From a virus: DNA of 64,000 bases. Numbering within the stretch: the first letter of the stretch is position 1; every line of letters starts with the position of its first letter. Of the stretch, positions 1-61,238 are shown piece by piece. The position numbers and the translations under genes were made by a program. A model generated the notes under the pieces. The model ran no database searches. It was given only the letters and a program-made list of their open reading frames with translations, and was not told where the DNA came from. Where the stretch lies: UHGV virus genome UHGV-0033085; one strand, given 5' to 3'.

Positions 1-861
1 AACCTGGCCTCCCGTAATGCAGGCTTTATCAACAAGCGTTTTGACGGCGTGCTGGCAAGCGAACTGGCTGACCCGCAACTGTACAAAACCTTTACTGATG
101 CCGCTGAAGTGATTGGCGAAGCATGGGAAAGCCGCGAATTTGGTAAAGCTATCCGTGAAATCATGGCATTGGCTGACCTGGCTAACCGCTATGTCGATGA
201 ACAGGCTCCGTGGGTGGTGGCGAAGCAGGAAGGACGCGATGCCGATCTGCAGGCGATTTGCTCTATGGGCATTAACCTGTTCCGCGTGCTGATGACGTAC
301 CTGAAGCCGGTACTGCCGAAACTGACTGAACGTGCAGAAGCATTCCTGAATACAGAACTGACCTGGGATGGTATCCAGCAACCGCTGCTGGGCCATAAAG
401 TGAATCCGTTCAAGGCACTGTATAACCGTATCGATATGAAACAGGTGGAAGCACTGGTGGAAGCATCCAAAGAAGAAGTGAAAGCCACAGCCGCACCGGT
501 AACTGGCCCACTGGCTGACGACCCGATTCAGGAAACCATCACCTTTGACGACTTCGCCAAAGTTGACCTGCGTGTGGCGCTGATTGAAAACGCGGAGTTT
601 GTTGAAGGCTCTGACAAACTGCTGCGTCTGACACTGGATCTCGGTGGTGAAAAGCGTAATGTCTTCTCAGGCATCCGTTCTGCTTATCCAGACCCACAGG
701 CACTGATTGGTCGTCATACCATTATGGTGGCTAACCTGGCTCCGCGTAAAATGCGCTTCGGTATCTCTGAAGGCATGGTGATGGCTGCTGGCCCCGGCGG
801 GAAAGATATCTTCCTGTTAAGCCCGGATGCTGGTGCTAAACCAGGCCACCAGGTTAAGTAA
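1..861 (+). CDS. metG: methionine--tRNA ligase MetG, C-terminal part (5-prime end outside window)
   Basis: Frame 1 open from base 1 to TAA 859-861; translation resembles the anticodon-binding and C-terminal tRNA-binding domains of enterobacterial MetRS. Confidence 0.9.
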
Positions 862-883: not shown

Positions 884-908
884 GCCCGGCAACACGCTGG
901 GCATTTTC
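884..908 (+). terminator. intrinsic terminator of metG
   Basis: GCCCGGC-aacac-GCTGGGC hairpin followed by ATTTT, 23 nt after the metG stop. Confidence 0.6.
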
Positions 909-944
909 ATATAGACACAATCCCTTCTGATTTACACAGTACCT

Positions 945-1010
945 AAAACAATTTGTTTTCTGCCTTTTGTTGTTTGAGATAATAAGCCACATAAGAAAAC
1001 AACTTGTTTT
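945..1010 (+). promoter_or_regulatory. promoter-operator module: palindrome AAAACAattTGTTTT (945-959), -10 GATAAT (about 977-982), palindrome AAAACAactTGTTTT (996-1010)
   Basis: Two copies of a 15-bp palindrome 51 bp apart bracketing a sigma70-like -10 box; RBS and start codon follow within 15 nt. Confidence 0.5.
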
Positions 1011-1022
1011 GGAGTGGTTGAA

Positions 1023-1322
1023 ATGTTGAACATTACCCAAGCCTACCAGGTGGCATTGATCAGTTCATCTCATACATCAGAGGAAGATGCTCGCCGATTC
1101 ATGATCGCAAGCAATGAGCTGGATTGGGTTTCACAAATTGACGGCGGTTGTATTGTCCACGCTGGGTTACAGGATGATGTCTGGAAAGACGACTTGCGTC
1201 GATATGGTATATCCGAAGGCGCGATTGCTAACATTCAGAAAGTACTTGATGTAGGCTTTGACTCTGTACATTTTGATTGTGGTGCACCGGTCGTTGAAGG
1301 GCTTGAGTGCTGGCAATGGTAA
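1023..1322 (+). CDS. hypothetical small protein
   Basis: ORF track 1014..1322; ATG at 1023 directly after operator and GGAG. Confidence 0.5.
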   Translation: MLNITQAYQVALISSSHTSEEDARRFMIASNELDWVSQIDGGCIVHAGLQDDVWKDDLRRYGISEGAIANIQKVLDVGFDSVHFDCGAPVVEGLECWQW

Positions 1323-1358
1323 TCCGGCAATCGCTTCATACTAGATAACGGAGAATTT

Positions 1359-1544
1359 ATGCTTAAAGAAGACTCATATCTACTAAAGGCGCTTGAAATG
1401 CGTGGCGTTGAACCTACAGTGAAAAACGCTCACGATATCTACCTTCAGTTTTCGCCAGAGCTGAAACAGCTCATAAATAAATATGGAGTGAATGACTCCA
1501 GCGTCAAAGCCATGATAGATGATGAATTAGACCATCTCATCTAA
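1359..1544 (+). CDS. hypothetical small protein
   Basis: ORF with GGAG 7 nt upstream of ATG. Confidence 0.5.
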   Translation: MLKEDSYLLKALEMRGVEPTVKNAHDIYLQFSPELKQLINKYGVNDSSVKAMIDDELDHLI

Positions 1545-1656
1545 CCAAACCGTTGATAATGGCGGTCACAATTTGATTCTTTTCTATAAGAATCCGTTGA
1601 TCGCCACTACTCCCCTTCCATGCCTGCAATCACATCCTTAAATATCAATAGGTTAT

Positions 1657-1684
1657 AGTTGTTTATACCAATAAGAAAACAACT
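1657..1684 (+). promoter_or_regulatory. split operator-like inverted repeat AGTTGTTT-N12-AAACAACT
   Basis: Same half-sites as the AAAACA-N3-TGTTTT palindrome but in tail-to-tail arrangement, at the start of the CA-rich unit. Confidence 0.35.
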
Positions 1685-1689
1685 GAATA

Positions 1690-2512
1690 ACAGATCAACG
1701 AAACGTCAACGCTTTCACCCGATTTGGTCTAAAAAATTGACGTTTTCACACATCACTTCTTATACTCGTAATCCTACGCAGCAGACAGCTCCACAGCGTC
1801 CAATTTTCACTACAGACGACTCAACACACTACCAACAAAAACACACGCTCAAAATCGCTCCCGTTACGTTACACAACCATATAAACAACTTATTTTCAGG
1901 CATAACAAAACAACTAAATAACACATATGCCACTCCCCAAAACAACCAACCTCTTTATGGCAGGCTACCGAAAAGACCCACCTCTTCTTCCCAGGCTACC
2001 GGACAGCCAACCTAACTTTCACAGGCAATCCGAAAACATTCATACGCGCGATACCCACGACACGCCATTCCCCAAACAGCGAAGAAACACCAGAATCACT
2101 GAAAACCCAACGAAGCCTGTAACCGCAAGGATTCTCTCAATCCCAAAAGACACGAAACATAACAATCACGGGAAACGCCATTACCCAATACACGAATAAC
2201 TACAAAAGCCCTTCACGCACTCCAGACAAACAACTCAAACACAACAACGAAAGGAATCGCCCACCTGCCATTACTCCATACATGGAGAAGAACAATCACC
2301 AAAACGACGAGAACACCCCATAGAAGAACCACCGCAAAACGAACGAAACCACATACACCGACAGAGAAAACAACACACCCAATTCACCAACAGAAATAGT
2401 CGCCGTATAGAACATTCTGGAAGGAGTGAGCATTAACGCCTATAGAGAGGTTGAGACAGATAAAACACAACATGCATAGCGAAGAAGCCAGGTATGTATA
2501 AGTGGGGAGGGA
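1690..2512 (+). ncRNA. candidate non-coding CA-rich, G-depleted transcript unit
   Basis: About 0.8 kb where the + strand is almost only A and C; lies between an operator-bearing promoter region and a terminator; overlapping ORFs are low-complexity without RBS. Confidence 0.3.
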
Positions 2513-2536
2513 AGGAGGGGTGTCGCCTCCTTTTTC
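2513..2536 (+). terminator. intrinsic terminator
   Basis: AGGAGG-ggtgtcg-CCTCCT hairpin followed by TTTTT. Confidence 0.55.
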
Positions 2537-2596
2537 GTATTTATTCAACTCCTGATTTTGTCCCCCGTAACACCCCTACGGTCAGCCTTCGGTCCA

Positions 2597-2733
2597 TACA
2601 GGGAAAAGGCTGCATCCCGCTACAGAAACGGCTGGGTTGCCTTCGGGGAACGGCTGGAGGTTTTCAGGGAAACGGTCGAGTTGCCTGTGTGGATTTCGGG
2701 AAAAGGCTCGATGCCGGTTCAGGAACGGCGGCG
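2597..2733 (+). repeat. iteron-like direct repeat array (six copies, consensus TTCAGGGAAACGGCTG)
   Basis: Copies starting about 2599, 2623, 2645, 2665, 2695, 2719; spacing 21-30 bp. Confidence 0.6.
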
Positions 2734-3066
2734 TACCGGTATAGCGTGAGGGAGAGTTTCGGCTACCCACCTGCAATGTGCGGGAAGAAGAGAGGCGCTC
2801 ACGTGCAGGCGGACTAACTTACCGTTGGACTCCCTTTGAATGCCCAACTACAGCGTAATTGTGCCAGAGAGTCAGCGGGTCACAATCGATTTCAGTAGGT
2901 TTTCGGGGAGAGGATTATTCTGCCCACCAGCCACCTTCGGCCACTAAATCAGAATAATGTAAAAAGTGTACTCGGTACTGAACCTGAAAACTCACTGCCA
3001 AAACCACATTCACCGGAATAAAATCCTTTTTCACCTGTGCGTTATTACGATAATAACACCAACAAG

Positions 3067-3081
3067 AAAACATGTTGTTTA
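3067..3081 (+). promoter_or_regulatory. operator palindrome AAAACAtgtTGTTTA downstream of a GATAAT -10
   Basis: Member of the AAGAAAACA-N3-TGTTT family; overlaps the first ATG of the downstream ORF. Confidence 0.45.
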
Positions 3082-3422
3082 AGAATTGCTTTATGTTTGC
3101 AAATATCGACATCAACCAAATCAAGAAATTGACTCAAAAAGAGTTTGACCAGTTCTATGAGCTGGAAGGTTGGTCTTCCACTCTGATTAATTCAAGATGG
3201 GTGCTGGAGCTGATGACTCGTGATGATGCACCTGCTTTGATGATCAGCGACCTGGGTGAAGATGCTGACTTTATGGATATGAGCGAATTTTGTGTGGACA
3301 CATACAACCGCAGCCAGAAGTACTACTTCACATGCGATAGCGAGAACGACGTGATTTCTAAGGTCTATCTTCACCTTGTCCAGCATTGGGACGTTCAGGA
3401 GTTTCTTGAAGTATTCGAGTAA
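3072..3422 (+). CDS. hypothetical acidic protein
   Basis: ORF track; start uncertain (ATG 3072 or 3096). Confidence 0.45.
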   Translation: MLFKNCFMFANIDINQIKKLTQKEFDQFYELEGWSSTLINSRWVLELMTRDDAPALMISDLGEDADFMDMSEFCVDTYNRSQKYYFTCDSENDVISKVYLHLVQHWDVQEFLEVFE

Positions 3423-3551
3423 ACCCAACCAAAGCCAGCAATGCTGGCTTAACTTCATCTATAGCCGCAGGGAAGAACCTGCATATCGCTCATGCACCTG
3501 ATCAATATGCTTTGTAGCCGTTTTCTTACTGGTATTATTTACGCCATTGAG

Positions 3552-3566
3552 AAAACAAGTTGTTTA
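3552..3566 (+). promoter_or_regulatory. operator palindrome AAAACAagtTGTTTA
   Basis: Family member 13 nt after a TATTAT -10-like box; followed by GGAG and ATG 3577. Confidence 0.45.
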
Positions 3567-3576
3567 CGGAGTTGTG

Positions 3577-3888
3577 ATGAAAAAATCATTGGTTCTTGGT
3601 CTGGACAAAGACCAGAAGAGAAAAGAGAAGCCTGCACTGGTTGCTCAATTAACTTTGCTGGACATCGTTGCCAATGGGACCTCTATTCGTCTGTTCCGTG
3701 AAACAGCGGTGTCTTTCGATAAAAACACCTTTACTCGTTATGTAATGAATGTTCGTCGCCAGCGTGGAAAAGGCTGGGTGGCATTTCAAAGAATGTGGCC
3801 GGAACATCAGCTCGAACTGGCTTTGATGGAAGTTAACCGCGTGGCCCAGCAAGAGATTCAGAGAGCATCAGTGATGGCAATAGCCTGA
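3577..3888 (+). CDS. hypothetical basic protein
   Basis: ORF track 3547..3888; ATG 3577 preceded by ACGGAG. Confidence 0.5.
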   Translation: MKKSLVLGLDKDQKRKEKPALVAQLTLLDIVANGTSIRLFRETAVSFDKNTFTRYVMNVRRQRGKGWVAFQRMWPEHQLELALMEVNRVAQQEIQRASVMAIA

Positions 3889-3923
3889 TAATGTGCAAGT
3901 GGCAATTAGTCGACAGTACGACA

Positions 3924-3950
3924 GCCCCGCCATCCTTACGGGGCTTTTTT
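3924..3950 (+). terminator. intrinsic terminator
   Basis: GCCCCG-N9-CGGGGC hairpin plus T6. Confidence 0.65.
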
Positions 3951-3955
3951 GTATT

Positions 3956-3971
3956 GTAAGTACATACTTAC
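3956..3971 (+). promoter_or_regulatory. TAAGTA box (GTAAGTACATACTTAC)
   Basis: Member of the recurrent GATAAGTAAGTA / TAAGTA-N-TACTTA family, 44 nt upstream of ATG 4015. Confidence 0.4.
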
Positions 3972-4014
3972 GATCATAGAATAGAAAAATAACCAATACA
4001 CTACGGAGAGTGAA

Positions 4015-4410
4015 ATGACCGTTAAACGCGAAAAACTGACAGTTGATGTTTACTATGCCTCTGAAACCGCCGAAGGTAAGAATGTGGCAAAAATCACCGT
4101 TGTTACGTACAACACCGAAACTGGTGCCGAAGTCCAGGCCAGTACGATCGTGCGTAAAGGTGATGCCTCCGGCGGCGAGTACGCGACTCAATACCAGTCC
4201 ATTCTCGATGCAACTGACCCGCTGCTGCTGAAAATCGAGAACTACTTCCGCCAGGTTGATGAAGAGGTGTTTGAAACCATGATGAGTATGGTTAATTCCG
4301 TATTCACCTCCAGCCTGAACACCAGCACCACCTGGATTGGCCAGTACGGTCTGCGTATTACCTCCGGCATTCCTGCTGACACCTTAATCCCTGAAAGCGT
4401 ATTCGCTTAA
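4015..4410 (+). CDS. hypothetical protein
   Basis: ORF with ACGGAGAG RBS. Confidence 0.55.
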   Translation: MTVKREKLTVDVYYASETAEGKNVAKITVVTYNTETGAEVQASTIVRKGDASGGEYATQYQSILDATDPLLLKIENYFRQVDEEVFETMMSMVNSVFTSSLNTSTTWIGQYGLRITSGIPADTLIPESVFA

Positions 4411-4419
4411 TCCTCTTTA

Positions 4420-4446
4420 AATGGCGCGTAAACCGCGCCATTTTCT
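4420..4446 (+). terminator. intrinsic terminator
   Basis: AATGGCGCG-taaac-CGCGCCATT hairpin followed by TTTC. Confidence 0.6.
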
Positions 4447-4454
4447 TATGCCCG

Positions 4455-4520
4455 ATAACAATTTGTTTTCTGCCTTTATCTTACTGCGATAATTACAACA
4501 ACAAGAAAACAACGTGTTTA
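4455..4520 (+). promoter_or_regulatory. promoter-operator module: ATAACAattTGTTTT (4455-4469), -10 GATAAT (4488-4493), AAAACAacgTGTTTA (4506-4520)
   Basis: Near-duplicate of the 945-1010 module, including the shared TTTGTTTTCTGCC string. Confidence 0.5.
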
Positions 4521-4537
4521 TTAGGTGGTGAAATAAT

Positions 4538-4690
4538 ATGGAATACATTGTTACTGTCGCTTCGTCAGATCGGGAGTCGTTACTTGAGGCTATCAGAAGC
4601 ATGGAAAACATCATCATGTCAGAGCAGGAGCTTAATGGTTATCTTGAGATGGATGATTTTTCTATCAAAATGGAGGTGAAGAATGACTGA
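4538..4690 (+). CDS. hypothetical small protein (50 aa)
   Basis: Not in ORF track (under 60 aa); AGGTGG RBS; stop overlaps next start (ATGA). Confidence 0.35.
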   Translation: MEYIVTVASSDRESLLEAIRSMENIIMSEQELNGYLEMDDFSIKMEVKND

Positions 4691-4964
4691 CTTCACCATT
4701 ACCCCTAAAGCACAAAATGTATTTCTTGAATCATGGCTGGACTTGCCGGAAACAGAACAGCAAGAAATGGATCATGTGGAATATGACGAGCAGGTAAGCA
4801 CGCGATTCTTCCACTTTGAGGGCTGCGTTTACGACATTGCCGACTTCATGCGAGATGACCGCTTCCCTGAATGGCACGCCAGTTATCCACTAAACGCCTT
4901 CGCCATGCTGATGATCCGTGTGGATGATTCAGGGGATACCATCGACATCGGTCTGCTCCACTAA
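4683..4964 (+). CDS. hypothetical protein
   Basis: ORF track; start overlaps upstream small ORF. Confidence 0.5.
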   Translation: MTDFTITPKAQNVFLESWLDLPETEQQEMDHVEYDEQVSTRFFHFEGCVYDIADFMRDDRFPEWHASYPLNAFAMLMIRVDDSGDTIDIGLLH

Positions 4965-4969
4965 AGAGT

Positions 4970-4993
4970 AAGGCCACCAATGCTGGTGGCCTT
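4970..4993 (+). terminator. conserved GC-rich hairpin AAGGCCACCA-atgc-TGGTGGCCTT (terminator-like, no U-run)
   Basis: Perfect 10-bp stem right after the stop codon; near-identical copy at 6039-6062. Confidence 0.4.
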
Positions 4994-5064
4994 AAATGAC
5001 AACACTTTGCCTTACTTCCTGATAGTAGCCTTATAAATCTTCTTTTTAGCCTATTTCATTCAGC

Positions 5065-5086
5065 GATAATTATCACATCGAAAACA
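5065..5086 (+). promoter_or_regulatory. GATAAT -10 plus AAAACAA half-site
   Basis: Same GATAAT-N10-AAAACA spacing as the other modules but only one half-site. Confidence 0.35.
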
Positions 5087-5101
5087 AACGAGGAATTAAA
5101 A

Positions 5102-6034
5102 ATGAAACCAGTATTTTTGGGACAAATTGACATTAGTGAATTGTTTTCAGTTAAAGATGGGTCCCAATATGACTGTGATTGCCTTGAACTTAATGGTCTT
5201 GAATATGAATACAGATTGGCTATTGTGAATGATGGTAAGAAGACATTTTCTGTCGAATGTTTTAAAAATACTTACTTTAAGCATGTGTTGAGAATAAGAC
5301 AGCGTGTGGAGATGTCAATTCGGGAAAACATCAAAAATAAATGTGAGTTTCTTGCGATTAAAAATGAAATAGATGCAATAAACTTTGTTACGTTCACTGA
5401 TAGTGGTCGATTGGCTATGCTGGAGCTATTTCATCTGATCGTTTCTAATAACAGTATAACAGAAGCCTTGATCAGTCTTTCAACTATAGTATCAAAAGAA
5501 AGAGAACACACTGGCGCTTTAATTGTAGAGAAGCTAGGTGGAATACTCGAGAAGATCAAAAATAAAGAGTTGATTATAGAATATGGCAAGGAAAGTAGAA
5601 AAAATAATTTACATTCAGCTTTTCGTTCCCCATATGTTGAGCGTTTAAATGGTTCGGCATCTTTTGTTAATTTAGAGTTTAATAGATTCTTTAGTTCTCT
5701 TTTTACAGAGTATGGAATTGTTATTGTGGAGGTAAATAATGAGAATGATGTGCCAAAAATCATAGTGCATTCGATGCCGGATATCCCTTTCAATGAGATT
5801 GAGAACAAACTGGAGATTTTAGACGATATAAATACAAAAAGCATGGAAGAACTCATAGAGTATCTGGCCGTAGATGCGGTAGCTATGGCTGATAATGATG
5901 TGTTTGGGGTTGGTGCACTGCATGAAGGCTATCTTGACGCCCTTGAACTTTACGGGACTGCTCGCTGGTTTCTGTCAGGATTAGTGGATGATGCGCCTTT
6001 ACTCATCAATACAGATTATTCTTATTCCAGTTGA
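5102..6034 (+). CDS. hypothetical protein (310 aa), AT-rich gene
   Basis: Long ORF with GAGG RBS; base composition clearly more AT-rich than flanks. Confidence 0.55.
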   Translation: MKPVFLGQIDISELFSVKDGSQYDCDCLELNGLEYEYRLAIVNDGKKTFSVECFKNTYFKHVLRIRQRVEMSIRENIKNKCEFLAIKNEIDAINFVTFTDSGRLAMLELFHLIVSNNSITEALISLSTIVSKEREHTGALIVEKLGGILEKIKNKELIIEYGKESRKNNLHSAFRSPYVERLNGSASFVNLEFNRFFSSLFTEYGIVIVEVNNENDVPKIIVHSMPDIPFNEIENKLEILDDINTKSMEELIEYLAVDAVAMADNDVFGVGALHEGYLDALELYGTARWFLSGLVDDAPLLINTDYSYSS

Positions 6035-6038
6035 AAAC

Positions 6039-6062
6039 AAGGCCACCAGCAGTGGTGGCCTT
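6039..6062 (+). terminator. conserved GC-rich hairpin AAGGCCACCA-gcag-TGGTGGCCTT
   Basis: Second copy of the 4970-4993 hairpin with a different loop. Confidence 0.4.
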
Positions 6063-6203
6063 AAATGACCATCCTGTTTCCCGCAGGCTAAAAACACCAA
6101 CCTCTTACCTCCAGGCAACCGACAAACCCACCTGTTCCCGTCCGGCTACCGCAACTTTCCACTTTGACGCCTTATTCGTACAACGATAATTAACACAAAC
6201 AAG

Positions 6204-6218
6204 AAAACAATTTGTTAT
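6204..6218 (+). promoter_or_regulatory. operator palindrome AAAACAattTGTTAT downstream of GATAAT -10
   Basis: Family member; TTGACG -35-like and GATAAT upstream; GAGGA RBS downstream. Confidence 0.45.
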
Positions 6219-6237
6219 TTACGATGAGGAATTAATC

Positions 6238-6720
6238 ATGAACTTTATCGCTACTGTAAACGCACCCGCACATGGCAATATCGCTGTAACGTTCTCTGAC
6301 ATTGAAAAACGAGTACTTGGTGCATGGCGCGACAATGAGACGGTAGAACTGTCAGCACAAGAAAAATGCATTATTGCACGCGACATCATTGGCAATCGTC
6401 GTTACTCGCGGGTATTTGAGAAAGCGTATGTGGTAAATTCTGGATTCGGAACGTTCGTCTTTCCGGTGCGCTCCGGGCGATTCTGCCAGTCCAAGCTGAT
6501 TGAGTTCGCTACGCAGATTTCTGTCTGGATTAAAACTCAATCGTCGTTCAAATTTTCCGACGATGAAGCAGTATCGCAGGGGATGCGGATCGCCAACAAT
6601 GCGATTAAATGCAAAAACATTACGTATACCGCTGGCGTTGACACATGGAAACTGTTTTGCGCTAACTTTATGCTGAATGTATACGCAAGCAACCGCATCC
6701 ACATCCTTGATGGCGTGTAA
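6238..6720 (+). CDS. hypothetical protein
   Basis: ORF track with RBS. Confidence 0.55.
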   Translation: MNFIATVNAPAHGNIAVTFSDIEKRVLGAWRDNETVELSAQEKCIIARDIIGNRRYSRVFEKAYVVNSGFGTFVFPVRSGRFCQSKLIEFATQISVWIKTQSSFKFSDDEAVSQGMRIANNAIKCKNITYTAGVDTWKLFCANFMLNVYASNRIHILDGV

Positions 6721-6729
6721 CTGAGAAGA

Positions 6730-6750
6730 GGGCCAGAAACGGCCCTTTCT
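6730..6750 (+). terminator. intrinsic terminator
   Basis: GGGCC-agaaac-GGCCC hairpin plus TTTCT. Confidence 0.5.
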
Positions 6751-6769
6751 CTATAGCCACCAGCTGCCG

Positions 6770-6890
6770 CAGGGAAATTTTCAGAAACGGCGAGGAACGT
6801 ATTCATGAGCCGACGGGGAACGGCCAGGATTTTTTCGGGAAACGGCTGCATTCGCCTTTATGTAGAAAAACATCGGGAAGCTGGTGGAAT
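6770..6890 (+). repeat. second iteron-like array (CAGGGAAA / CAGAAACGGC / GGGGAACGGCC / GGGAAACGGCTG / GGGAAGCTGG)
   Basis: Same repeat family as 2597-2733. Confidence 0.5.
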
Positions 6891-6972
6891 CCAACCAGCG
6901 GTTGTCGGACAGGTGAGCGGGGAAAATCATGATGACTTTCGTCGCCTGAGACATCCAGATTTCTTTCGTAGC

Positions 6973-7017
6973 ATAATCACATACGTGATTAAGTGGTGTG
7001 ATTATGTGAAAAATCAC
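6973..7017. repeat. cluster of inverted GTGATT / AATCAC hexamers
   Basis: ATAATCACATACGTGATTAAGTGGTGTGATTATGTGAAAAATCAC; five hexamer copies in 45 bp. Confidence 0.4.
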
Positions 7018-8797: not shown

Positions 8798-9316
8798 TTA
8801 AAACGGAAGGATTCGTTCAACCCAATCGAAGAAAATAAGTATTTTTCTGCCGTCTTCCAACTTAAGTGTGACTAGACAGGCGTCAACGCCATCTGACGTT
8901 CCCTCAATTTCGCGACCGTCTGCCATGTAGACCCTTATAGATTTGCCGTTTTGGTAAGCCTGACGACATATCTTAAAAAAGTCACGACGTGATGGCTGAT
9001 TAACCATCTGTTCATTGTTTAGCGTTAGTCGACCTGTGAATGAAGTGTCAACCTCTTCTATGCCCGACTCAATTGTGCTAATGCGCTCAAGAGGGAGCCT
9101 TACACGATTTGTGTTGCTAAACGGATCTGGTGTGAGGTTCAGCTTATTTCTTGCGCTCAACAGCCCGTAGACATACATGCAAAACACTTGGCCGTCTTCG
9201 AGAGTGACTCTTACAGGAAATTGAGCACTCCGCCAGAAGAGCAAGGTGCGCTCAGCATGTTCGTAGTCTCGCGGCCAGACTTCAGCCGGTATGCCGTAGG
9301 TGATGTCTTTAACCAT
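8798..9316 (-). CDS. hypothetical protein
   Basis: ORF track. Confidence 0.5.
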   Translation of the reverse strand: MVKDITYGIPAEVWPRDYEHAERTLLFWRSAQFPVRVTLEDGQVFCMYVYGLLSARNKLNLTPDPFSNTNRVRLPLERISTIESGIEEVDTSFTGRLTLNNEQMVNQPSRRDFFKICRQAYQNGKSIRVYMADGREIEGTSDGVDACLVTLKLEDGRKILIFFDWVERILPF

Positions 9317-17470: not shown

Positions 17471-17508
17471 CTTAATAAGACATGCCCAGACCTAATTAAA
17501 CACCCCAG

Positions 17509-17548
17509 AAAACAAGTTGGTTAGCAGATGCAGTAAACAAGTTGTTTT
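17509..17548 (+). promoter_or_regulatory. two adjacent operator-like palindromes AAAACAagtTGGTTA and TAAACAagtTGTTTT
   Basis: AAAACA-N3-TGTTTT family, 40-80 nt upstream of the small terminase gene. Confidence 0.45.
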
Positions 17549-17587
17549 AGAGCGCATGGACGCGCTCTGTGTGTTTTAGAGGGATCT

Positions 17588-18220
17588 ATGACGGTCGAAA
17601 AAGACGAGGTAAAAACTCGCCTGACACCAGCGGAGTGGGCCGAAGCTGAAGCCAAATGGACGTCAGGCGAATATACACTCTCAAAGCTGGAGGAAGAGTA
17701 CGGCATTCGTCGTGAAACACTCTCCAGACATTTCAAAAAGCGAGGATTAGAGAAAGGCGCGGACTCTGTTGGGAAGATGGTTCGTGAGTCTCTTAAATCT
17801 GACGCAGAGCTTCGCGCTAAAGCCCGTGCGGAAAAGATAGAAGAACGTCGTACACGTTATGACGGCTGGGCGTATGCGTTGGGGCAGATGGTGATGGTCG
17901 AAGTCACTACGGCCAAACGTGATGGTAAGCCTTTAGGGGCGATTGAGGATTCTCTCAAGAGCTTACAGAGAGCCAGTAATACCCTTGCAAAATGCTTTGA
18001 AGTTTCGTCCAAAGCATTGGGCATGGATCATGCGGAAAATGACGAGGAAGAAATTCCGAACCTGGTATTTGGTGAGCTTACGCCTTCCCAGGTGGCGAAA
18101 TTACGTCAGGAAGACGACGAGCCTGAAATCATCGATGACGAATTGCTTGAGACGTTGGAAGAAGAAGCTCTAAGCGAATTTGATGCGACAGATGATGGAA
18201 GTGAAGGGGAGGACGAATAA
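17588..18220 (+). CDS. terminase small subunit (putative)
   Basis: HTH-like N-terminus, acidic C-terminus, directly upstream of the large terminase. Confidence 0.6.
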   Translation: MTVEKDEVKTRLTPAEWAEAEAKWTSGEYTLSKLEEEYGIRRETLSRHFKKRGLEKGADSVGKMVRESLKSDAELRAKARAEKIEERRTRYDGWAYALGQMVMVEVTTAKRDGKPLGAIEDSLKSLQRASNTLAKCFEVSSKALGMDHAENDEEEIPNLVFGELTPSQVAKLRQEDDEPEIIDDELLETLEEEALSEFDATDDGSEGEDE

Positions 18221-46536: not shown

Positions 46537-47058
46537 TTATTCTTCGAACAATTTTTCGATAGATTTTGTAGGATAGAACAAAGAACGCTCGTTGTTACCA
46601 ACCAGCTGGATAAAGTCTAAACTTTTATAAAACGCCTTGGCTTTGTCATTTAACGCCTCAACGAAAAGTCCATGAATGCCTACAGCAAGAGATGCATTGT
46701 ACACAACGCGCATTGCATGTGTTACAAGCATTGAGCCAAATCCTTGACCTTGAAGGGACTTGTCCAAAGCCAGCCTACCCAAAGTAACACTTGGAACATT
46801 CCGATAAGGTACCTTCTTTTGCTGGCTTCTTGAAGGTAAGGACTCCTTTTCAAAGCAGCTACCTGACAAAGTGTAATACCCTAACACTTTTGGTCTGCCT
46901 TCTTTCGTGCAGAGCACATAAGCGCGAAGAATTTTTCCCTCATGCTGCCTTTTTAAGTGGTTGGTTAAAAAGGCATTTAGTGATTCTTCACCGCAATCAA
47001 AACCATTCAAATCATAATCTTTCTCTCCAGAGAAAATTTCTATCTTTATATTATCCAC
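46537..47058 (-). CDS. GNAT-family toxin (TacT-like)
   Basis: GNAT motifs; paired with DUF1778-like antitoxin. Confidence 0.8.
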   Translation of the reverse strand: MDNIKIEIFSGEKDYDLNGFDCGEESLNAFLTNHLKRQHEGKILRAYVLCTKEGRPKVLGYYTLSGSCFEKESLPSRSQQKKVPYRNVPSVTLGRLALDKSLQGQGFGSMLVTHAMRVVYNASLAVGIHGLFVEALNDKAKAFYKSLDFIQLVGNNERSLFYPTKSIEKLFEE

Positions 47059-47065
47059 GAGTAAA

Positions 47066-47335
47066 CTACTCCATGCTTTTCAGACGATCAGCAGCTCGTT
47101 TCAGCTTGTCGTTCGGTGCCGGAGGATTGCTTATAGCGTCCATAACCAGATTCCAGGATTCTTCATTCAGAACTAGTCTACGGTGTTGCTCTATAACTTT
47201 CACGGCACGTTCAGATGCACTGCTAACCATAAACTGAGTAATGCTCTGGTTAGACATTGCGGCAGCTTCCTCGATGATGCTTTTATCGTCATCGGTTAAT
47301 CTCAAATCGATGCGCTGCTTTTTTAGTGCTGACAT
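47066..47335 (-). CDS. DUF1778-type antitoxin (TacA-like)
   Basis: N-terminal RIDLRLTDDDK...SITQFMVSSA motif; ORF track 47066..47374, ATG 47335 has AGGAGG RBS. Confidence 0.8.
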   Translation of the reverse strand: MSALKKQRIDLRLTDDDKSIIEEAAAMSNQSITQFMVSSASERAVKVIEQHRRLVLNEESWNLVMDAISNPPAPNDKLKRAADRLKSME

Positions 47336-47604
47336 GTATTCCTCCTGATGGCCGTGATGTAGGAAGGCCATCAATCTCCTCTGTTCAAACTGAGTTTTCG
47401 ACTCAAAAATTACTTTAAAAGGCTATAGCCCATTACGTGTGCATTATCAAATTGTGTACGGCATATCACCGTACTTGTAATATAGAGGTCATTGTTACTT
47501 TTTTCAACAGACAAATACAAGCTATGTTTGCCAATTGTTAATCACAACCTACCATTTAACCTTTACACCGCAGCCGTAGGCATTTAGGCTATATCACATA
47601 TAAG

Positions 47605-47619
47605 AAAACAAATTGTTTC
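47605..47619 (+). promoter_or_regulatory. operator palindrome AAAACAaatTGTTTC upstream of parA
   Basis: AAAACA-N3-TGTTTT family; GATAAT 5 nt downstream. Confidence 0.45.
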
Positions 47620-47653
47620 AGACGATAATTATATACGCAAAGGGAACTCTCCA

Positions 47654-48322
47654 ATGACCAAGATCTTTGTGGTTGGCGGCACAAAGGGCGGGCCTGGCAA
47701 ATCCACCGTTGCCCAGCAAATTGCCGTTTGCCTGAAAGTCAAAAAGAAGAAGAAGGTTTATATCACTGATATAGATATTCAGCGCACGACAACGAGCTGG
47801 TGTGAAGACCGTCGACAGAACGAATACCTTGAGCTGATTCCTTTTGCATACGTTCAGGATGACATCATTAAGCACCTAAAATCGCTTCAGGGTAGAGCTG
47901 AGTTTGTAGTGGTAGATGCTGGTGGCTTCGACTCCGAAATTCAGCGACAAGCGATGCTGATGGCCGACGTTATCATTATCCCGCTTCGTCCTAAGCGTCG
48001 TGATTTGAAATCTCTGCGTGACATCGATCCTATTATCGACAATGTTCGCAATGTAAACGATAAAGTGAAGGTCCGCGCGGTCATGAACCAGTGCCCGGCT
48101 TTGCCATCACAAGTGTCTCGCATTCTGGCGGCTAAAGAGATTGTTGAGACGTTTGGAATCGAGTCTGCGCCAGTCAATCTATATAACCGCAACGTCTATG
48201 ATGATGCGGAAGAGTCTGGTCGTTCTATCTTTGAAATGACCGGTAGCGAGCGCGACAAAAAGGCGGAAGCCGAGTTTGAAGAATTTGTAGATTATCTGTT
48301 GAGTCTGGAGGAAGAAGAATAA
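47654..48322 (+). CDS. parA: ParA-family partition ATPase
   Basis: Deviant Walker A GGTKGGPGKST; small type Ib-like ParA. Confidence 0.85.
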   Translation: MTKIFVVGGTKGGPGKSTVAQQIAVCLKVKKKKKVYITDIDIQRTTTSWCEDRRQNEYLELIPFAYVQDDIIKHLKSLQGRAEFVVVDAGGFDSEIQRQAMLMADVIIIPLRPKRRDLKSLRDIDPIIDNVRNVNDKVKVRAVMNQCPALPSQVSRILAAKEIVETFGIESAPVNLYNRNVYDDAEESGRSIFEMTGSERDKKAEAEFEEFVDYLLSLEEEE

Positions 48323-48681
48323 TGTCCATGAAAATGGGTGACCTAGCAAAGCGCAAAGAGCCTGATGCACCGGCTAAGAACACAACTCCTTTGCGCCAAC
48401 CAGTCAGACCACAGGGACGCCCGACTCGTGGCAAAGAGAAAATTAAAAGCCGCACAATGTCACTGGAGGACGAATACTTCGAACTGCTGGAGATGATGAA
48501 GTTCATCCCTCGCTTCGAGAAGTTCACTCGTTCTGACGTGATTCGAGCAGCCATTTTCCATCTGGCAGAGAAGTCACCGCAGGAAATCGAGGACATCGTG
48601 AAATTGAATGAGGCGATCACCGCTGCCGATGTCACGATGCGTACCGATGAAATCAAACGAGAGTTGATGAAGAAAGGTTAA
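48322..48681 (+). CDS. ParG-like partition partner (putative)
   Basis: Small basic protein coupled to parA. Confidence 0.45.
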   Translation: MSMKMGDLAKRKEPDAPAKNTTPLRQPVRPQGRPTRGKEKIKSRTMSLEDEYFELLEMMKFIPRFEKFTRSDVIRAAIFHLAEKSPQEIEDIVKLNEAITAADVTMRTDEIKRELMKKG

Positions 48682-50524: not shown

Positions 50525-50534
50525 CTAATACTAG

Positions 50535-50549
50535 AAAACAATTTGTTTA
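50535..50549 (+). promoter_or_regulatory. operator palindrome AAAACAattTGTTTA upstream of helicase gene
   Basis: Family member followed by AAGGAAA RBS. Confidence 0.45.
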
Positions 50550-50567
50550 AAAAACAAAGGAAAGCAC

Positions 50568-51908
50568 ATGACCGAACTTTGCCATACAGGACGCGGGCTG
50601 TCCGAAGAGTTTGATGAAGATTTCCAGAACAGACTGACGGCATATTTTTGTCGTGATCACGAGTTTCTTACTCGTGCGGGAGATCTGGTTGTGCCTAGCC
50701 AATTTGCCAATGCGGCCAATGCCATATTGGTTAATATGGTTTCGGGCTATTACCGTATGTACAAGAGCGCGCCCTCTTCATCTGCAATTCTTGATATGCT
50801 TAAGCGTGCGAAACGCGATAAGACTATCCGTGAGGAACTATTCGCCGATGTTGTTGCTGCGTTTAAGCGCATTCTTGCAGAAAAATTGTCCGATACCTCG
50901 TACATGGTTGACCAGGTATCAACCTTCGCAAAAAGTGTAGCGTTTGATGATGCTCTGATTAAGGCTGCTGAACTGAAAGAGAAAGGCGACTTTCAGGGGG
51001 CGATGGCAATCATGGCCAAGGTTCAGCAGATTGGATCGAACGAAGCGACCGGAATCTATGACTACTACACCTCCGCAAGTGAGCGATTGAAAGCGCGTGA
51101 ATATGAGGCTTCAGAGGAGTATGTGCCAAACAGCATTACAACTGGACTCCCTCTGCTCGATAGGTTGCTGTACCAAAAAGGCTGGGCGAAGCGTGAAATG
51201 GTGCTCTTCATGGGGTTCGCTAAATCCGGTAAATCGACTGCAATGGGTGAATTTTCCATAAACGCAACGCTTGCTGGCTACAATGTTCTGTATCTCTCGC
51301 TGGAGGTTCACACCACCATTTTATCCGACCGTTTTGATGCAAGATTGTCGGAGACAGAAATGTCCAAGCTGGTGGAACGGCGCGATGAGGTTCATCGTAA
51401 GTTGGCAGAGTTGGGAGCCACGAAGGGGATTGGTAGTTTGTGGGTGGTTGAGCGTCCGTCAGGAAGTATGTCACCGGCAGATCTGGACCGTATGCTTAAC
51501 AGCATGAAAGCCAACGGCATGGTGCCTGACATGGTTGTTGTCGACTACGCAGATTTGATGCGTGCCAGTTATGACCTTCGTGATGATCGCGCCAACATTC
51601 GTAGTATCTACACCGATTTACGTGCTCTTTATGACAAGCATAACGTTGCTGGGATCACGGCATCGCAGACAAACCGTGAAGGTGGCGCGTCAGAAGTTGC
51701 CACAATGATGCACGCCGCCGACAACATCGAAAAAGTACGTATTGCTGACCTGGTAATAACGATCAACAAAACCGAAGAAGAAGAAGCGAAAGGAGAGGCT
51801 CGTCTCTACTTTGCCGGTTCACGTAACCAGCAGGGAGGGATCAGCATTCGCGTTAAACAAAACCTCGAACAAATGCGCTTCATTGAGCGAATCTTAGACG
51901 TTACCTAA
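50568..51908 (+). CDS. DnaB-like helicase (RecA-fold ATPase)
   Basis: Walker A GFAKSGKST, Walker B VVVDYADLM; upstream of primase. Confidence 0.7.
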   Translation: MTELCHTGRGLSEEFDEDFQNRLTAYFCRDHEFLTRAGDLVVPSQFANAANAILVNMVSGYYRMYKSAPSSSAILDMLKRAKRDKTIREELFADVVAAFKRILAEKLSDTSYMVDQVSTFAKSVAFDDALIKAAELKEKGDFQGAMAIMAKVQQIGSNEATGIYDYYTSASERLKAREYEASEEYVPNSITTGLPLLDRLLYQKGWAKREMVLFMGFAKSGKSTAMGEFSINATLAGYNVLYLSLEVHTTILSDRFDARLSETEMSKLVERRDEVHRKLAELGATKGIGSLWVVERPSGSMSPADLDRMLNSMKANGMVPDMVVVDYADLMRASYDLRDDRANIRSIYTDLRALYDKHNVAGITASQTNREGGASEVATMMHAADNIEKVRIADLVITINKTEEEEAKGEARLYFAGSRNQQGGISIRVKQNLEQMRFIERILDVT

Positions 51909-57469: not shown

Positions 57470-57544
57470 GATGGTGTAGCTCAGCGGTAGAGCAGTTGGC
57501 TGTTAACCAACTGGTCGGTGGTTCGAATCCACCCACCATCGCCA
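57470..57544 (+). tRNA. tRNA-Asn (anticodon GTT)
   Basis: Cloverleaf folded by hand: 7-bp acceptor, GCTC/GAGC D-stem, GTTGG/CCAAC anticodon stem, loop CTGTTAA, TTCGAAT T-loop, encoded CCA. Confidence 0.85.
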
Positions 57545-57549
57545 ATTTA

Positions 57550-57636
57550 GGGGAGTTAGTCCGTAGAGGTAGCGGTGTAGACTGTAAATCTACTGTCATG
57601 GCGACTCGGGTGGTTCGACTCCATCACTCCCCACCA
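57550..57636 (+). tRNA. tRNA-Tyr (anticodon GTA), type II
   Basis: Acceptor GGGGAGT/ACTCCCC, anticodon stem GTAGA/TCTAC with loop CTGTAAA, long variable arm, TTCGACT T-loop, encoded CCA. Confidence 0.8.
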
Positions 57637-57640
57637 AATT

Positions 57641-57716
57641 GCCGGTTTAGCTCAGTTGGTAGAGCGCCTGCCTTGTAAGCAGGATGTCAGCGGTTCGAGT
57701 CCGTTAACCGGCACCA
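57641..57716 (+). tRNA. tRNA-Thr (anticodon TGT)
   Basis: Acceptor GCCGGTT/AACCGGC, GCTC/GAGC D-stem, anticodon stem CCTGC/GCAGG with loop CTTGTAA, TTCGAGT T-loop, CCA. Confidence 0.85.
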
Positions 57717-57717
57717 A

Positions 57718-61185: not shown

Positions 61186-61206
61186 TGCTACATTAAACAC
61201 AGTAGT

Positions 61207-61221
61207 AAATAATTTGTTTTC
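61207..61221 (+). promoter_or_regulatory. degenerate operator AAATAAtttGTTTTC upstream of vWA gene
   Basis: Right half-site matches the AAAACA-N3-TGTTTT family; followed by AAGGA RBS. Confidence 0.3.
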
Positions 61222-61238
61222 ATAACAAAGGATTAGCC

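Follow-up and report, generated by a model that had tools for sequence, protein, structure and literature searches.

A palindromic motif shared by the small-gene array and core genes of an SSU5/pHCM2-like phage-plasmid

The DNA analyzed here is a 64,000-nucleotide stretch of the virus genome UHGV-0033085, referred to as the window. The element is a circular SSU5/pHCM2-like phage-plasmid of Escherichia coli, is widespread, and carries its own metG. The 260 megablast places all lie on plasmids, with no chromosomal place among them, and metG and apbC belong to a phage-plasmid of ~108 kb. An earlier sequence-only reading had placed the array described below between a host metG terminator and a prophage end; neither label applies to a plasmid-borne phage that encodes metG itself.

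The array is composed of small-gene cassettes (Table 1). Each cassette would be a self-contained transcription unit in which a promoter, an operator, and a Shine-Dalgarno sequence precede one or two small ORFs and a hairpin terminator closes the unit. Hairpins are found 3' of six cassettes, in agreement with the earlier statement that most cassettes end in one. That reading listed seven palindrome-bearing cassettes, and most of these units are present as described, but the "1690" unit has the left half of the palindrome only and is non-coding, and the "5102" unit has a half operator.

Table 1. Features of the array and of the core genes preceded by the motif. Operators are putative; scores are matrix scores.
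Feature	Position	Strand	Details
Sites of at least 18 bits	942(-), 993, 3064, 3549, 4452(-), 4503, 6201, 17506, 17531, 47602, 50532, 61203(-)		
-10 GATAAT	978-983, 3049-3054, 4488-4493, 5065-5070, 6185-6190		read from sequence
-10 TATTAT	3533-3538		read from sequence
Breakpoints between relatives	946, 1014, 3065/3072, 4481 (19 loci), 5000 (14 loci), 6039 (26 loci)		at operators, hairpins
Cassette 1 upstream operator O2	942..962	-	22.6 bits; inverted, overlaps -35 position; centre 51 bp from O1 centre
Cassette 1 extended -10 (TGA GATAAT)	975..983	+	read from sequence
Cassette 1 promoter-proximal operator O1 AAGAAAACAACTTGTTTTGGA	993..1013	+	27.6 bits
Cassette 1 cargo	1023..1544	+	ORF 1023-1322 (DUF5983 C-terminal domain) and ORF 1359-1544 (61 aa)
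Degenerate "1690" module	1673..1683	+	only left half-operator AAGAAAACAAC
Non-coding "cargo" of "1690" unit	1737..2535	+	promoter, A/C-rich stretch, terminator
Cassette 3 module	3049..3084	+	GATAAT 3049-3054, O1 3064-3084; 27.2 bits; breakpoints 3065, 3072
Cassette 3 cargo ORF	3072..3422	+	116 aa, or 109 aa from ATG 3093; phrog_7645
Cassette 4 module	3530..3569	+	TGG TATTAT 3530-3538, O1 3549-3569; 24.8 bits
Cassette 4 core cargo ORF	3577..3888	+	103 aa, basic, four-strand-plus-helix fold
Module-less ORF within array	4015..4410	+	131 aa; phrog_2473
Cassette 6 upstream operator O2	4452..4472	-	19.5 bits; 51 bp from O1
Cassette 6 promoter and O1	4485..4523	+	TGC GATAAT 4485-4493, O1 4503-4523; 26.0 bits
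Cassette 6 cargo	4538..4964	+	ORF 4538-4690 (50 aa) and ORF 4683-4964 (93 aa, phrog_1845)
Cassette 8 ("5102") degenerate module	5065..5089	+	GATAAT 5065-5070, half-operator TCGAAAACAAAC 5078-5089
Cassette 8 accessory cargo ORF	5102..6034	+	310 aa
Cassette 9 module	6185..6221	+	GATAAT 6185-6190, O1 6201-6221; 24.9 bits; weaker right arm TTGTTAT
Cassette 9 core cargo ORF	6238..6720	+	160 aa, phrog_1641
Tandem operators, 25 bp apart	17506..17551	+	18.3 and 21.7 bits; 5' of small terminase/DNA-binding gene 17588-18220 (phrog_867)
parA promoter operator	47602..47622	+	27.0 bits; between -10-like GCTATAT and Shine-Dalgarno of parA (47654-48322)
Candidate repressor, ParA partner	48322..48681	+	119 aa; basic tail, then ribbon-helix-helix-like KSRTMSLEDE...FTRSDVIRAAI segment
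Helicase operator	50532..50552	+	25.5 bits; 5' of DnaB-like helicase gene 50568-51908
vWA/CobT-like gene operator, weaker, inverted	61203..61223	-	18.5 bits; 5' of gene 61239-63347

In the Pfam search, eight of nine array proteins had no above-threshold match; ORF 1023-1322 matched PF19419 (E 7.5e-11). The PHROG families matched by array proteins are all of unknown function, and the product of ORF 5102-6034 matched neither Pfam nor PHROG. Homologues of the DUF5983_C family occur in 1660 conjugative plasmids; in the pOXA-48 leading region, one adjoins ssb, an antirestriction gene, and a DUF1380 gene. The array genes are plausible host-takeover or anti-defence genes.

Related loci (n = 77) were collected via homologues of ORF 6238-6720, whose family lies behind a module in 76 of them. 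These loci hold 34 cargo families, only two of which are near-universal. The cassette 3 cargo family follows a module in 33 of the 77 loci and the phrog_1845 family in 42. Relatives carry other cargo at the cassette 1 position, e.g., a DUF1380 gene, with homology breaking at 1014. The TATTAT variant stays with the cassette 4 cargo in all lineages. ORF 5102-6034 is an insertion/deletion between two near-identical hairpins (4969-4994 and 6039-6062), and ORF 4015-4410 has its own promoter-like site, TTGTAA-17-TAGAAT at 3954-3982.

The "1690" unit has a full site at the 1673 position in some relatives, one of which reads ...caataacacccat AAGAAAACAACTTGTTTGCAG atcaacgtaacgtcaa. A sigma-70-like promoter, TTGACG-18-TATACT at 1737-1766, precedes an A/C-rich, G/T-poor stretch of ~740 nt that ends at an intrinsic terminator (2509-2535) and is syntenic in 69 of the 77 loci. 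ORFs inside this stretch are best explained as a composition effect.

The palindrome is strongly enriched. The exact pattern AAAACANNNTGTTT has 10 matches against 0.14 expected, and GAAAACANNNTGTTT, with at most one mismatch allowed, has 19 against 0.77. A 21-nt matrix was built from seven sites and applied with a cut-off of at least 18 bits, using shuffles as control. It found 12 sites in the window compared with 0.03 in shuffles, and leave-one-out scores were 19-24 bits. All 12 sites are intergenic, each with a start codon 10-40 nt downstream. The refined consensus is a 17-bp imperfect palindrome, AGAAAACAA-N-TTGTTTA, with a free centre base and a stronger left arm. Across 94 non-redundant contexts, the centre base carries 0.05 bit of information, and the positions immediately flanking the 17 bp carry less than 0.5 bit. 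This shape is the pattern expected of a two-fold symmetric DNA-binding protein.

The geometry of the module is fixed. AAGAAAACAA stands 9-10 nt past the -10 hexamer, placing AAAACA 12-13 nt past each GATAAT or TATTAT, as first claimed. The distance from the -10 end to the site is 9 nt in 36 modules and 10 nt in 11; in cassette 1, 9 nt separate O1 from the -10, and another 9 nt separate it from the ATG. The operator would span about +3 to +20. TGn precedes the hexamer in 36 of 52 non-redundant modules. The promoter would rely on this near-consensus, often extended -10 (TGnGATAAT), with a poor -35, and a consensus sigma-70 scan did not call the array module promoters because the -35 is poor. The second palindromes reported over the -35 of two cassettes were found, both with TTTGTTTTCTGCC. 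These inverted O2 copies lie exactly 51 bp upstream of O1, and the same spacing is seen in all 64 (-,+) pairs across the 77 loci. An alignment of six modules points to ~85 bp of common descent.

A site invariably placed between the -10 and the start codon, 10-40 nt from the latter and mostly in the sense direction, could act in RNA: as a hairpin in the leader, as a translational operator recognized by an RNA-binding protein (e.g., of the FljA family), or as a self-complementary "kissing" sequence. FljA-type proteins block translation of fliC mRNA (PMC2652032), and an FljA-family gene (8798-9316; PF03614, E 7e-69) is located 2 kb from the array. Some relatives also have a leftward module followed immediately by a terminator, which would give an ~45-nt RNA containing the palindrome. 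Action at the RNA level is nevertheless improbable. The 5' UTR hairpin proposed earlier is not supported by folding: stability is no greater than in shuffles (z-scores -1.0 to +1.2), and several minimum-energy structures lack the hairpin. Its stem would have only 5-6 weak pairs, mainly A-U, and no Rfam match was found. Copies occur in both orientations (the O2 sites and the vWA site), those at the -35 would stay untranscribed, and conservation is symmetric up to the bases beside the centre, as for duplex DNA recognition.

The motif is also present at core genes. The palindromes noted earlier 5' of terS, parA, the helicase gene, and the vWA gene all score at least 18 bits. The (+,+) 25-bp pair of terS is found in 20 relatives, and the vWA-gene operator is present in a related plasmid. 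A Klebsiella variant retains the -10 of the parA promoter and the AAGAAAACA(A) after it, and Moellerella does so in part. The helicase operator begins 8 nt past the point where the preceding gene stops and is 15 nt short of the helicase gene; in IMG/VR relatives and the Klebsiella lineage, its footprint TAGAAAACAAnTTGTTTAA is invariant apart from the centre base, and the flanks diverge. Four further strong sites occur in the remainder of a sister plasmid, where, outside the window, the motif lies 5' of nrdB, a TerB gene, a DUF7238 gene, and one other gene. One motif is thus common to the array and to these core genes, which therefore appear to form a regulon.

Cassettes are exchanged between relatives. 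Of the distinct homology breakpoints, about half coincide with operators or hairpins (52% in zones that make up 13% of the region), and Chi sites are located in the hairpins. The conserved 85-bp modules and hairpins appear to serve also as joints for cassette swaps. The palindromes might be mainly recombination joints, integron-like or used in homologous exchange, that are passed on along with the cassettes but lack any regulatory function. The breakpoints, the Chi sites, the common descent of six modules, and the variable cargo all agree with such a role, but as the sole function it is very unlikely. The site is kept at the non-cassette genes parA, helicase, nrdB, and terS, where the flanks are unrelated. 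An integron integrase and attC-like structure are absent, and a 1-nt centre is unlike tyrosine-recombinase core sites. A fixed -10 phase and a 51-bp pair spacing are unnecessary for recombination, and repeated modules would be expected to allow exchange incidentally.

Expression was taken from published RNA-seq of the LF82/Cyrano lysogen, as normalised counts. Module-driven genes are at 6.7-25.5 against a background of ~9.5 (0.7-2.7x), and two module-less array genes are at 57. ParA is at 50 and its partner at 89, the latter 9x background. Low lysogen expression also fits activator-dependent promoters. A factor produced only upon infection or induction, either an activator or a sigma-like or appropriator protein, could read AGAAAACAAnTTGTTTA by the -10 and switch on promoters lacking a -35. 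Such factors act on the Lpa-dependent late promoters of P1 and the MotA-dependent middle promoters of T4. The poor -35 of promoters that the sigma-70 scan did not call, the oriented element at a fixed distance from the -10, the silence of module-driven genes in the lysogen, and the motif 5' of the lytic-phase genes helicase, nrdB, and terS are in line with positive control. This mode is unlikely, however, given a site downstream of the -10, where bound proteins normally block transcription. The extended -10 in two-thirds of modules makes a -35 and an activator unnecessary, the inverted copy over the -35 at 51 bp is the classic layout of a repression loop, and parA has the site yet is expressed in the lysogen, as is its partner.

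The modules are probably sigma-70 promoters under a single DNA-binding repressor encoded by the element, and repression would be lifted when the DNA enters a naive cell. A dimeric or tetrameric repressor fits because conservation is symmetric with a free centre, the operator would lie at +3 to +20, and a second operator stands 51 bp upstream. The single regulon under a dimeric repressor proposed at the outset keeps its shared cis-element, symmetric site, and fixed geometry; its binder is a candidate only. The protein would bind operators as a dimer and, in full modules, where the inverted second operator covers the -35, probably as a dimer of dimers bridging both. Bound protein would keep the cassettes off during plasmid life. 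When the DNA enters a repressor-free cell, all cassettes would fire until repressor builds up, giving transient "establishment" expression. Single operators would put parA, the DnaB-like helicase, nrdB, the small terminase, and a few others under the same protein.

This looks like an "establishment" regulon under repressor control that, though of a familiar kind, has not been described before, and it resembles the systems of Reg576 (p576), ArdK/CUP (IncN plasmids), and KorB (RK2). The ribbon-helix-helix protein Reg576 represses four promoters of establishment genes, which are transiently de-repressed following transfer (PMC6294495). ArdK binds the CUP repeats of the IncN leading region (PMC6289460).

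The most likely binder, tentatively, is the ribbon-helix-helix-like ParA partner. Its KSRTMSxEDE and FTRSDVIRAAI segments are unchanged in relatives of 49-100% identity, in line with an invariant motif. The ParA partner would autoregulate parA via the operator at 47602 and act as a global regulator. Omega of pSM19035 and KorB of RK2 combine the two roles in this way. The XRE protein suggested by the sequence-only reading has no motif copy at its own promoter. The product of ORF 3577-3888 was considered as a regulator and is disfavoured. SOS induction of Cyrano has been reported, and a partition protein is not an obvious target of it. The helicase and terS operators might instead be those of the lysogeny repressor.

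It is doubtful that a host protein, either nucleoid-associated or a chromosomal Enterobacteriaceae transcription factor, binds a host operator adopted by the element. The pOXA-48 leading region has homologous cargo in the same hosts but lacks the motif, and outside this plasmid family the exact module pattern gives single, scattered matches only. No E. coli regulator is known to recognize this consensus, which does not match those of IHF, CRP, Fur, or LexA. On the other side, the same motif is found in elements from Escherichia, Klebsiella, Salmonella, Kluyvera, Buttiauxella, and Yersinia, and the CGATAATT stretch around the -10 presumably resembles an H-NS nucleation motif. Y. pestis pMT1-type contigs also keep two intact modules with neither candidate protein evident, and Yersinia was not among the leading host genera in plasmid searches with both candidates. 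Under control by an element-encoded repressor, the pMT1-type modules may be young relics.

The palindrome AAAACANNNTGTTT occurs 10 times in the window against 0.14 expected, and its one-mismatch version 19 times against 0.77 expected. A 21-nt weight matrix was built from seven promoter-proximal sites, and left-out sites score 19-24 bits. At a threshold of at least 18 bits, 12 sites are found in the window compared with 0.03 in shuffles (200 shuffles). All 12 are intergenic, with a start codon 10-40 nt downstream; hits inside genes are weaker (12-16 bits) and as frequent as in shuffles. The matrix scan thus confirms the repeated palindrome described in the sequence-only reading. Four more strong sites are found in the rest of a sister plasmid, where they precede nrdB and genes for a TerB-family, a DUF7238, and a hypothetical protein, so the element carries roughly 16-20 of these operators.

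The last protein of the array, the row of small-gene cassettes, was used to collect 77 related loci from IMG/VR (67-100% identity). These contain 576 sites in 394 distinct contexts, from which 94 representatives sharing less than 80% identity were kept. The consensus reads AGAAAACAA-N-TTGTTTA, a 17-bp palindrome whose left arm is stronger than its right. The centre base carries 0.05 bit (A33, G24, T20, C17), and the flanks of the 17 bp drop at once below 0.5 bit. The site ahead of the replicative helicase gene occupies part of a 43-bp gap, in which TAGAAAACAAnTTGTTTAA is invariant and the neighbouring bases vary between lineages, the flanks of the Klebsiella lineage being unalignable.

Each cassette begins with a promoter-operator module, and the six array modules align over ~85 bp of common descent. 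Among 52 promoter-type representatives, the -10-like hexamer is GATAAT in 35 and TATTAT in 9, and its end lies 9 nt from the operator in 36 modules and 10 nt in 11. A TGn precedes the hexamer in 36 of the 52, i.e., an extended -10, which explains why a consensus sigma-70 scan (-35/-10) calls none of the module promoters. Transcription is predicted to start ~7 nt after the -10, which would place the operator at about +3 to +20. The operator would then overlap the core promoter and transcription start, a layout that fits repression. Two modules of the window are full, having a second, inverted operator (O2) over the -35 in addition to the one after the -10 (O1); the upstream copy is decayed in the other four. 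The O2-O1 spacing is exactly 51 bp, or about five helical turns, in 64/64 such pairs of relatives. The small terminase gene is preceded by two tandem sites 25 bp apart.

Six cassettes are closed by hairpins. Two cassettes listed in the sequence-only reading need correction: the ~1690 unit, which keeps the left operator half and has no small gene (some relatives have a full site there), and the 5102 cassette, which retains GATAAT and half an operator and is an insertion/deletion between two near-identical hairpins. One further ORF inside the array has no module. In the related locus L114 (3432 and 3748, minus strand), and likewise in other Klebsiella-type loci, leftward modules (GATAAT, 9 nt, GTGAAAACAAnTTGTTTAAGG) run straight into a hairpin, AAGGCCACnnnnGTGGCCTTTTATTT. 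Such modules, of which the window has none, would yield a ~45-nt RNA with the palindrome.

Features of the array and of the related regions of the window
Position	Strand	Feature
49-861		metG fragment
942/993		full module (O2/O1)
1359-1544		acidic 61-aa ORF, first cassette
1737-2535		A/C-rich stretch, putatively non-coding
1737-1766		sigma-70-like promoter, TTGACG-18-TATACT
1937-2030		~31-nt repeats, CCAGGCTACCG...ACCCACCTC, in A/C-rich stretch
2509-2535		strong intrinsic terminator
2602-2707		GGRAAMGGC / AGAAACGGC cluster
2924, 4982, 6043, 6757, 6880		Chi octamers near the array
3577-3888		basic cassette protein
4015-4410		ORF in array, without module
4452/4503		full module (O2/O1)
4969-4994		terminator hairpin
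6039-6062		terminator hairpin
6086-6170		~31-nt repeats, just upstream of last module
6734-6846		GGRAAMGGC / AGAAACGGC cluster
8798-9316	-	FljA-family gene
46537-47374	-	KacT/KacA-like toxin-antitoxin pair
47602		operator in parA promoter
47654-48322		parA
48322-48681	+	ParA partner, candidate operator-binding protein
57470-58167	+	tRNA genes: Asn, Tyr, Thr, Ser
59193-60296		tyrosine recombinase
60291-60677		XRE protein
60850-60891		two 21-bp direct repeats, TGATATGAATGTATTCAGTAT / TGATATAAATTTTAGTAGTAT

The palindrome could act as duplex DNA or, as the sequence-only reading had offered in the alternative, as a hairpin in the 5-prime UTR. Palindrome arms are invariant, so covariation carries no signal on this point. 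The fold stability of seven leaders equals that of shuffles (z -1.0 to +1.2), and several minimum-energy structures lack the palindrome hairpin. An Rfam search with E up to 1 returned no match except a chance isrK hit elsewhere. These two results speak against a structured 5-prime UTR element, and the hairpin alternative was dropped. The motif occurs in both orientations, its upstream copies lie outside the predicted transcript, and conservation is symmetric about a free centre base. Together with the poor folding and the footprint at the helicase gene, this points to an operator read as duplex DNA by a two-fold symmetric protein. The FljA-family protein was considered as an RNA-level binder on account of its nearness to the array, its sole support, and was rejected.

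Expression in the plasmid state was taken from the Escherichia phage-plasmid Cyrano, whose modules were mapped onto the supplementary RNA-seq table of the LF82 study; the table covers the lysogen state. For genes directly behind a module, the normalised counts are 7.5, 12.8, 12.2, 6.7, and 25.5, with background at ~9.5; the highest value belongs to the gene whose operator has the weakest right arm. Array genes without a module in front reach 57 and 58 counts. Elsewhere in Cyrano, terS has 7 counts, the helicase 21, ParA 50, and the ParA partner 89. With near-background counts, the modules are essentially silent in the plasmid state. This silence fits repression; promoters that need an activator would fit it too. 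Given the symmetric site, the fixed promoter geometry, and the silence in the lysogen, a regulon under one dimeric repressor, as first proposed, remains the best reading, and we consider the general repressor-operator model fairly probable.

The best candidate for the repressor is the ParA partner, a 119-aa protein encoded directly after parA with a one-base overlap; the assignment is tentative. ParA itself has 222 aa, belongs to the ParA/MipZ/CbiA families and NF041546 (E 3e-33), and is small and type Ib-like. Type Ib parA operons are autoregulated by a small adaptor protein. The pair here has this layout: the ParA is small, of Walker type, and lacks an N-terminal DNA-binding domain, and a small putative adaptor gene comes next. 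The ParA partner is a candidate with an operator at its own operon promoter, and the Cyrano lysogen expresses its ortholog. In the parA promoter, the motif is the only element kept across E. coli, the Klebsiella variant, and, in part, Moellerella. In the ParA partner, a basic tail leads into KSRTMSLEDE...FTRSDVIRAAI, a segment that reads like a ribbon-helix-helix and is invariant, as is the motif, in relatives of 49-100% identity. The Moellerella protein has the same polar strand residues, and the few degenerate sites found there are too little for a co-variation test.

Three other proteins were weighed as binders and are less likely candidates. The XRE protein had been named for this role in the sequence-only reading. 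It is expressed in the Cyrano lysogen and is the 'putative repressor' of the Cyrano authors (PMC9928086). The motif is absent from its own upstream region, which instead carries two 21-bp direct repeats between the XRE gene and a divergent 70-aa ORF; these are likely a separate operator set for the XRE protein. A CI-like HTH gene outside the window has no motif within 1 kb. The basic cassette protein, which is near-universal among the loci, is modelled as a four-strand sheet plus helix with generic fold matches only, and its Cyrano ortholog is silent in the lysogen.

The array had been placed at a prophage end beside a host metG terminator, and this placement does not hold. A megablast search of window 900-7000 against all complete E. 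coli genomes gave 260 places, all in plasmids and 0 in chromosomes, the best-matching plasmids being ~108-114 kb. The phage records that match best are those of Escherichia phage Cyrano, which is the pLF82 element of strain LF82, and of other SSU5-like phage-plasmids. In the matching plasmid and phage records, apbC and then a complete metG (CYRAN_100 in Cyrano) stand immediately left of the array, so the metG fragment of the window is part of the element. The array is therefore internal to a circular phage-plasmid. The phage-plasmid thus carries its own full methionyl-tRNA synthetase gene and an ApbC/Mrp gene; in the sister plasmids L001 and L003, apbC lies further left.

The rest of the window has genes for the terminase, head, and tail, for a KacT/KacA-like toxin-antitoxin pair, and for ParA, a DnaB-like helicase, a recombinase, the XRE protein, and a vWA/CobT-like protein, along with four tRNA genes. 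Cyrano is a siphovirus present at ~5.5 copies per cell and induced 39-fold by ciprofloxacin (PMC9928086). The toxin-antitoxin pair is divergent from parA and very highly expressed in the Cyrano lysogen, and the four tRNA genes form one cluster. The FljA-family gene ('repressor of phase-1 flagellin', PF03614, E 7e-69), found 2 kb to the right of the array, is probably directed at the host, where it would stop flagellin from being translated.

The ORFs behind the sites fall into 34 families. Just two of these are near-universal, at 76/77 and 71/77 loci, and the remaining families are patchy, occurring in 42, 33, 24, 24, 17, 11 ... of the 77 loci. Between the window and close relatives, homology breaks at 946, 1014, 3065/3072, 4481, 5000, and 6039, which are operators and hairpins. 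Across loci, many of which share the same event, 52% of breakpoints fall in zones that make up 13% of the region. The modules are therefore also exchange joints, and the exchange is most simply explained by recombination between repeats.

Pfam gives no match reaching threshold for 8/9 array proteins, and every PHROG family matched is of unknown function. No known anti-defence domain was found among the array proteins with Pfam or PHROG. Homologues of the first ORF, which has a DUF5983 C-terminal domain, are found in 2292 plasmids, of which 1660 are conjugative. The homologue in pOXA-48 adjoins ssb, an antirestriction gene, and a DUF1380 gene, and the nearby relaxase places it in the leading region. 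The motif is absent from that pOXA-48 region. Cargo homologues without the motif indicate a gene pool common to conjugative establishment regions and a control module specific to this phage-plasmid family. For the acidic ORF of the first cassette, the match to the T7 gp5.9 RecBCD inhibitor family is below threshold (E 0.006, 17 residues); it is too weak to use but offers a lead.

Within the array, a sigma-70-like promoter leads into ~740 nt of A/C-rich, G/T-poor DNA that ends in a strong intrinsic terminator. The stretch has 40% A, 31% C, 15% G, and 15% T, a C/G ratio of 2-3.5 throughout, and predicted weak folding. It is syntenic in 69/77 related loci, at 66-73% identity where these are distant, and a full promoter-operator module stands ahead of it in some relatives. 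ORFs within it were rejected, since comparison with distant loci gives 40-49% identity in translation against 66-73% in nucleotides, and stop codons are rare because T is scarce. It was treated as putative non-coding DNA, and its composition is that of a would-be giant Rho-loading (rut-like) RNA. An Hfq (ARN)n sponge was also considered and rejected, as ARN repeats are not enriched.

Several known systems share parts of this arrangement. KorB of IncP RK2, which acts with KorA in the kil-kor regulon, is a large ParB-family helix-turn-helix protein that binds a 13-bp palindrome and often acts at a distance. Omega of pSM19035 is a partition DNA-binding protein that binds heptad arrays at many promoters. 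Both are global regulators that come from partition systems, adjoin a ParA-type ATPase, and link partition, replication, and other functions over the replicon. Short sites at many promoters and a ParA neighbour of the candidate binder are found here too, and the ParA partner would have a similar dual role. In contrast to these systems, one or two 17-bp sites lie directly on each core promoter here.

P1 C1 is a 283-aa repressor with scattered 17-bp asymmetric operators (ATTGCTCTAATAAATTT) that controls many operons, including the DnaB-like helicase ban. The phage-plasmid setting, scattered 17-bp operators, and a DnaB-like helicase among the predicted targets are shared. A P1 C1-type immunity network does not fit the operator here, which is a palindrome of different sequence; P1 also lacks a tandem array of modular cassettes. 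Integron cassettes are promoterless and rely on one Pc promoter, the IntI integrase, attI, and attC at their 3-prime ends. The array resembles them as a row of small, exchangeable, mostly unknown genes with imperfect palindromes between, whose content varies in close relatives. However, each cassette here comes with a promoter, operator, and terminator of its own, and the palindromes are 5-prime and only 17 bp. No IntI or attC was found, the only tyrosine recombinase is 53 kb away, and an integron array was rejected.

Reg576 of Bacillus pumilus p576 is an autoregulated plasmid ribbon-helix-helix repressor with one operator at four putative establishment promoters (PMC6294495). These promoters are off when the plasmid is established and briefly de-repressed after transfer or entry, and two dimers bind each operator, a dual TTATCCC heptamer, cooperatively (PMC6294495). 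A single operator common to several promoters and a suspected ribbon-helix-helix repressor are found here as well. Reg576 differs in belonging to a Gram-positive conjugative plasmid, whereas a phage-plasmid here has a 17-bp palindrome at ~16-20 promoters rather than four. The Reg576 gene is among its own regulated genes and its binding is shown; here, the best candidate is the ParA partner and binding is predicted.

The leading region of IncN pKM101/R46, as cited in a later paper, has small genes in tandem, each behind a CUP repeat with a promoter and a site for ArdK, the plasmid's repressor (Delver and Belogurov 1997, via PMC6289460). The same source has ArdK also controlling itself and replication, and CUP repeats thought to favour rearrangement. 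The likeness, one of layout, lies in tandem small genes each behind a repeat with promoter and operator. CUP units are several hundred bp long, whereas the units here are ~85 bp with a dual operator 51 bp apart. Entry here is as double-stranded phage DNA; IncN is conjugative.

The module pattern occurs in contigs of Kluyvera, Buttiauxella, and Yersinia pestis, and pMT1-type contigs keep two cassettes. Other hits are single and scattered (one in Xenorhabdus, others outside Enterobacterales) and are probably chance. In PLSDB, ~750-800 plasmids carry the two marker proteins that were searched; they come from Klebsiella, Escherichia, Enterobacter, Salmonella, Citrobacter, and Cronobacter, and almost all are non-mobilizable and ~110 kb. 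Phage-plasmids of the SSU5/pHCM2 type are frequent among clinical Escherichia, Klebsiella, Enterobacter, and Salmonella, and relatives include S. Typhi pHCM2 and parts of Y. pestis pMT1. A full-text literature search found no paper on promoters, operators, or this regulon in SSU5/pHCM2 regulation.

The regulon is real, well-defined, and of a familiar type, and is apparently undescribed. One repressor on many promoters of a mobile element is a well-known principle, so the value lies in a new system and its parts list and not in a new concept. A 17-bp operator over ~16-20 promoters gives an experimental handle on establishment in a new cell, on the restraint of replication, partition, and packaging genes in the plasmid state, and on the role of a variable small-gene set. 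The array itself is a list of candidate early, possibly anti-defence genes, partly shared with leading regions of conjugative plasmids.

A wider scheme, which we regard as unlikely, would make the ParA partner both partition adaptor and master switch of the establishment regulon, the ~16-20 operators, densest in the array, doubling as centromere. The 85-bp modules would capture leading-region-type genes from conjugative plasmids into the phage. The ~740-nt C-rich, G-poor, unstructured RNA would act on the host within the first minutes of entry, e.g., as a Rho or RNA-chaperone decoy.

Other repeats accompany the array. Two sets of ~31-nt repeats are present, one within the A/C-rich stretch. Clusters of GGRAAMGGC / AGAAACGGC repeats in G-rich DNA flank the conserved array core; exact matches number 8 in the window against 1.7 expected, with 5/8 in the two clusters. 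They look like sites for another protein, possibly iteron-like. The Chi octamer GCTGGTGG is present in 15 copies across the 64 kb, compared with 1.4 in shuffles. Five copies are within 4 kb of the array, and those at 4982 and 6043 fall within the two terminator hairpins on either side of the 5102 insertion/deletion.
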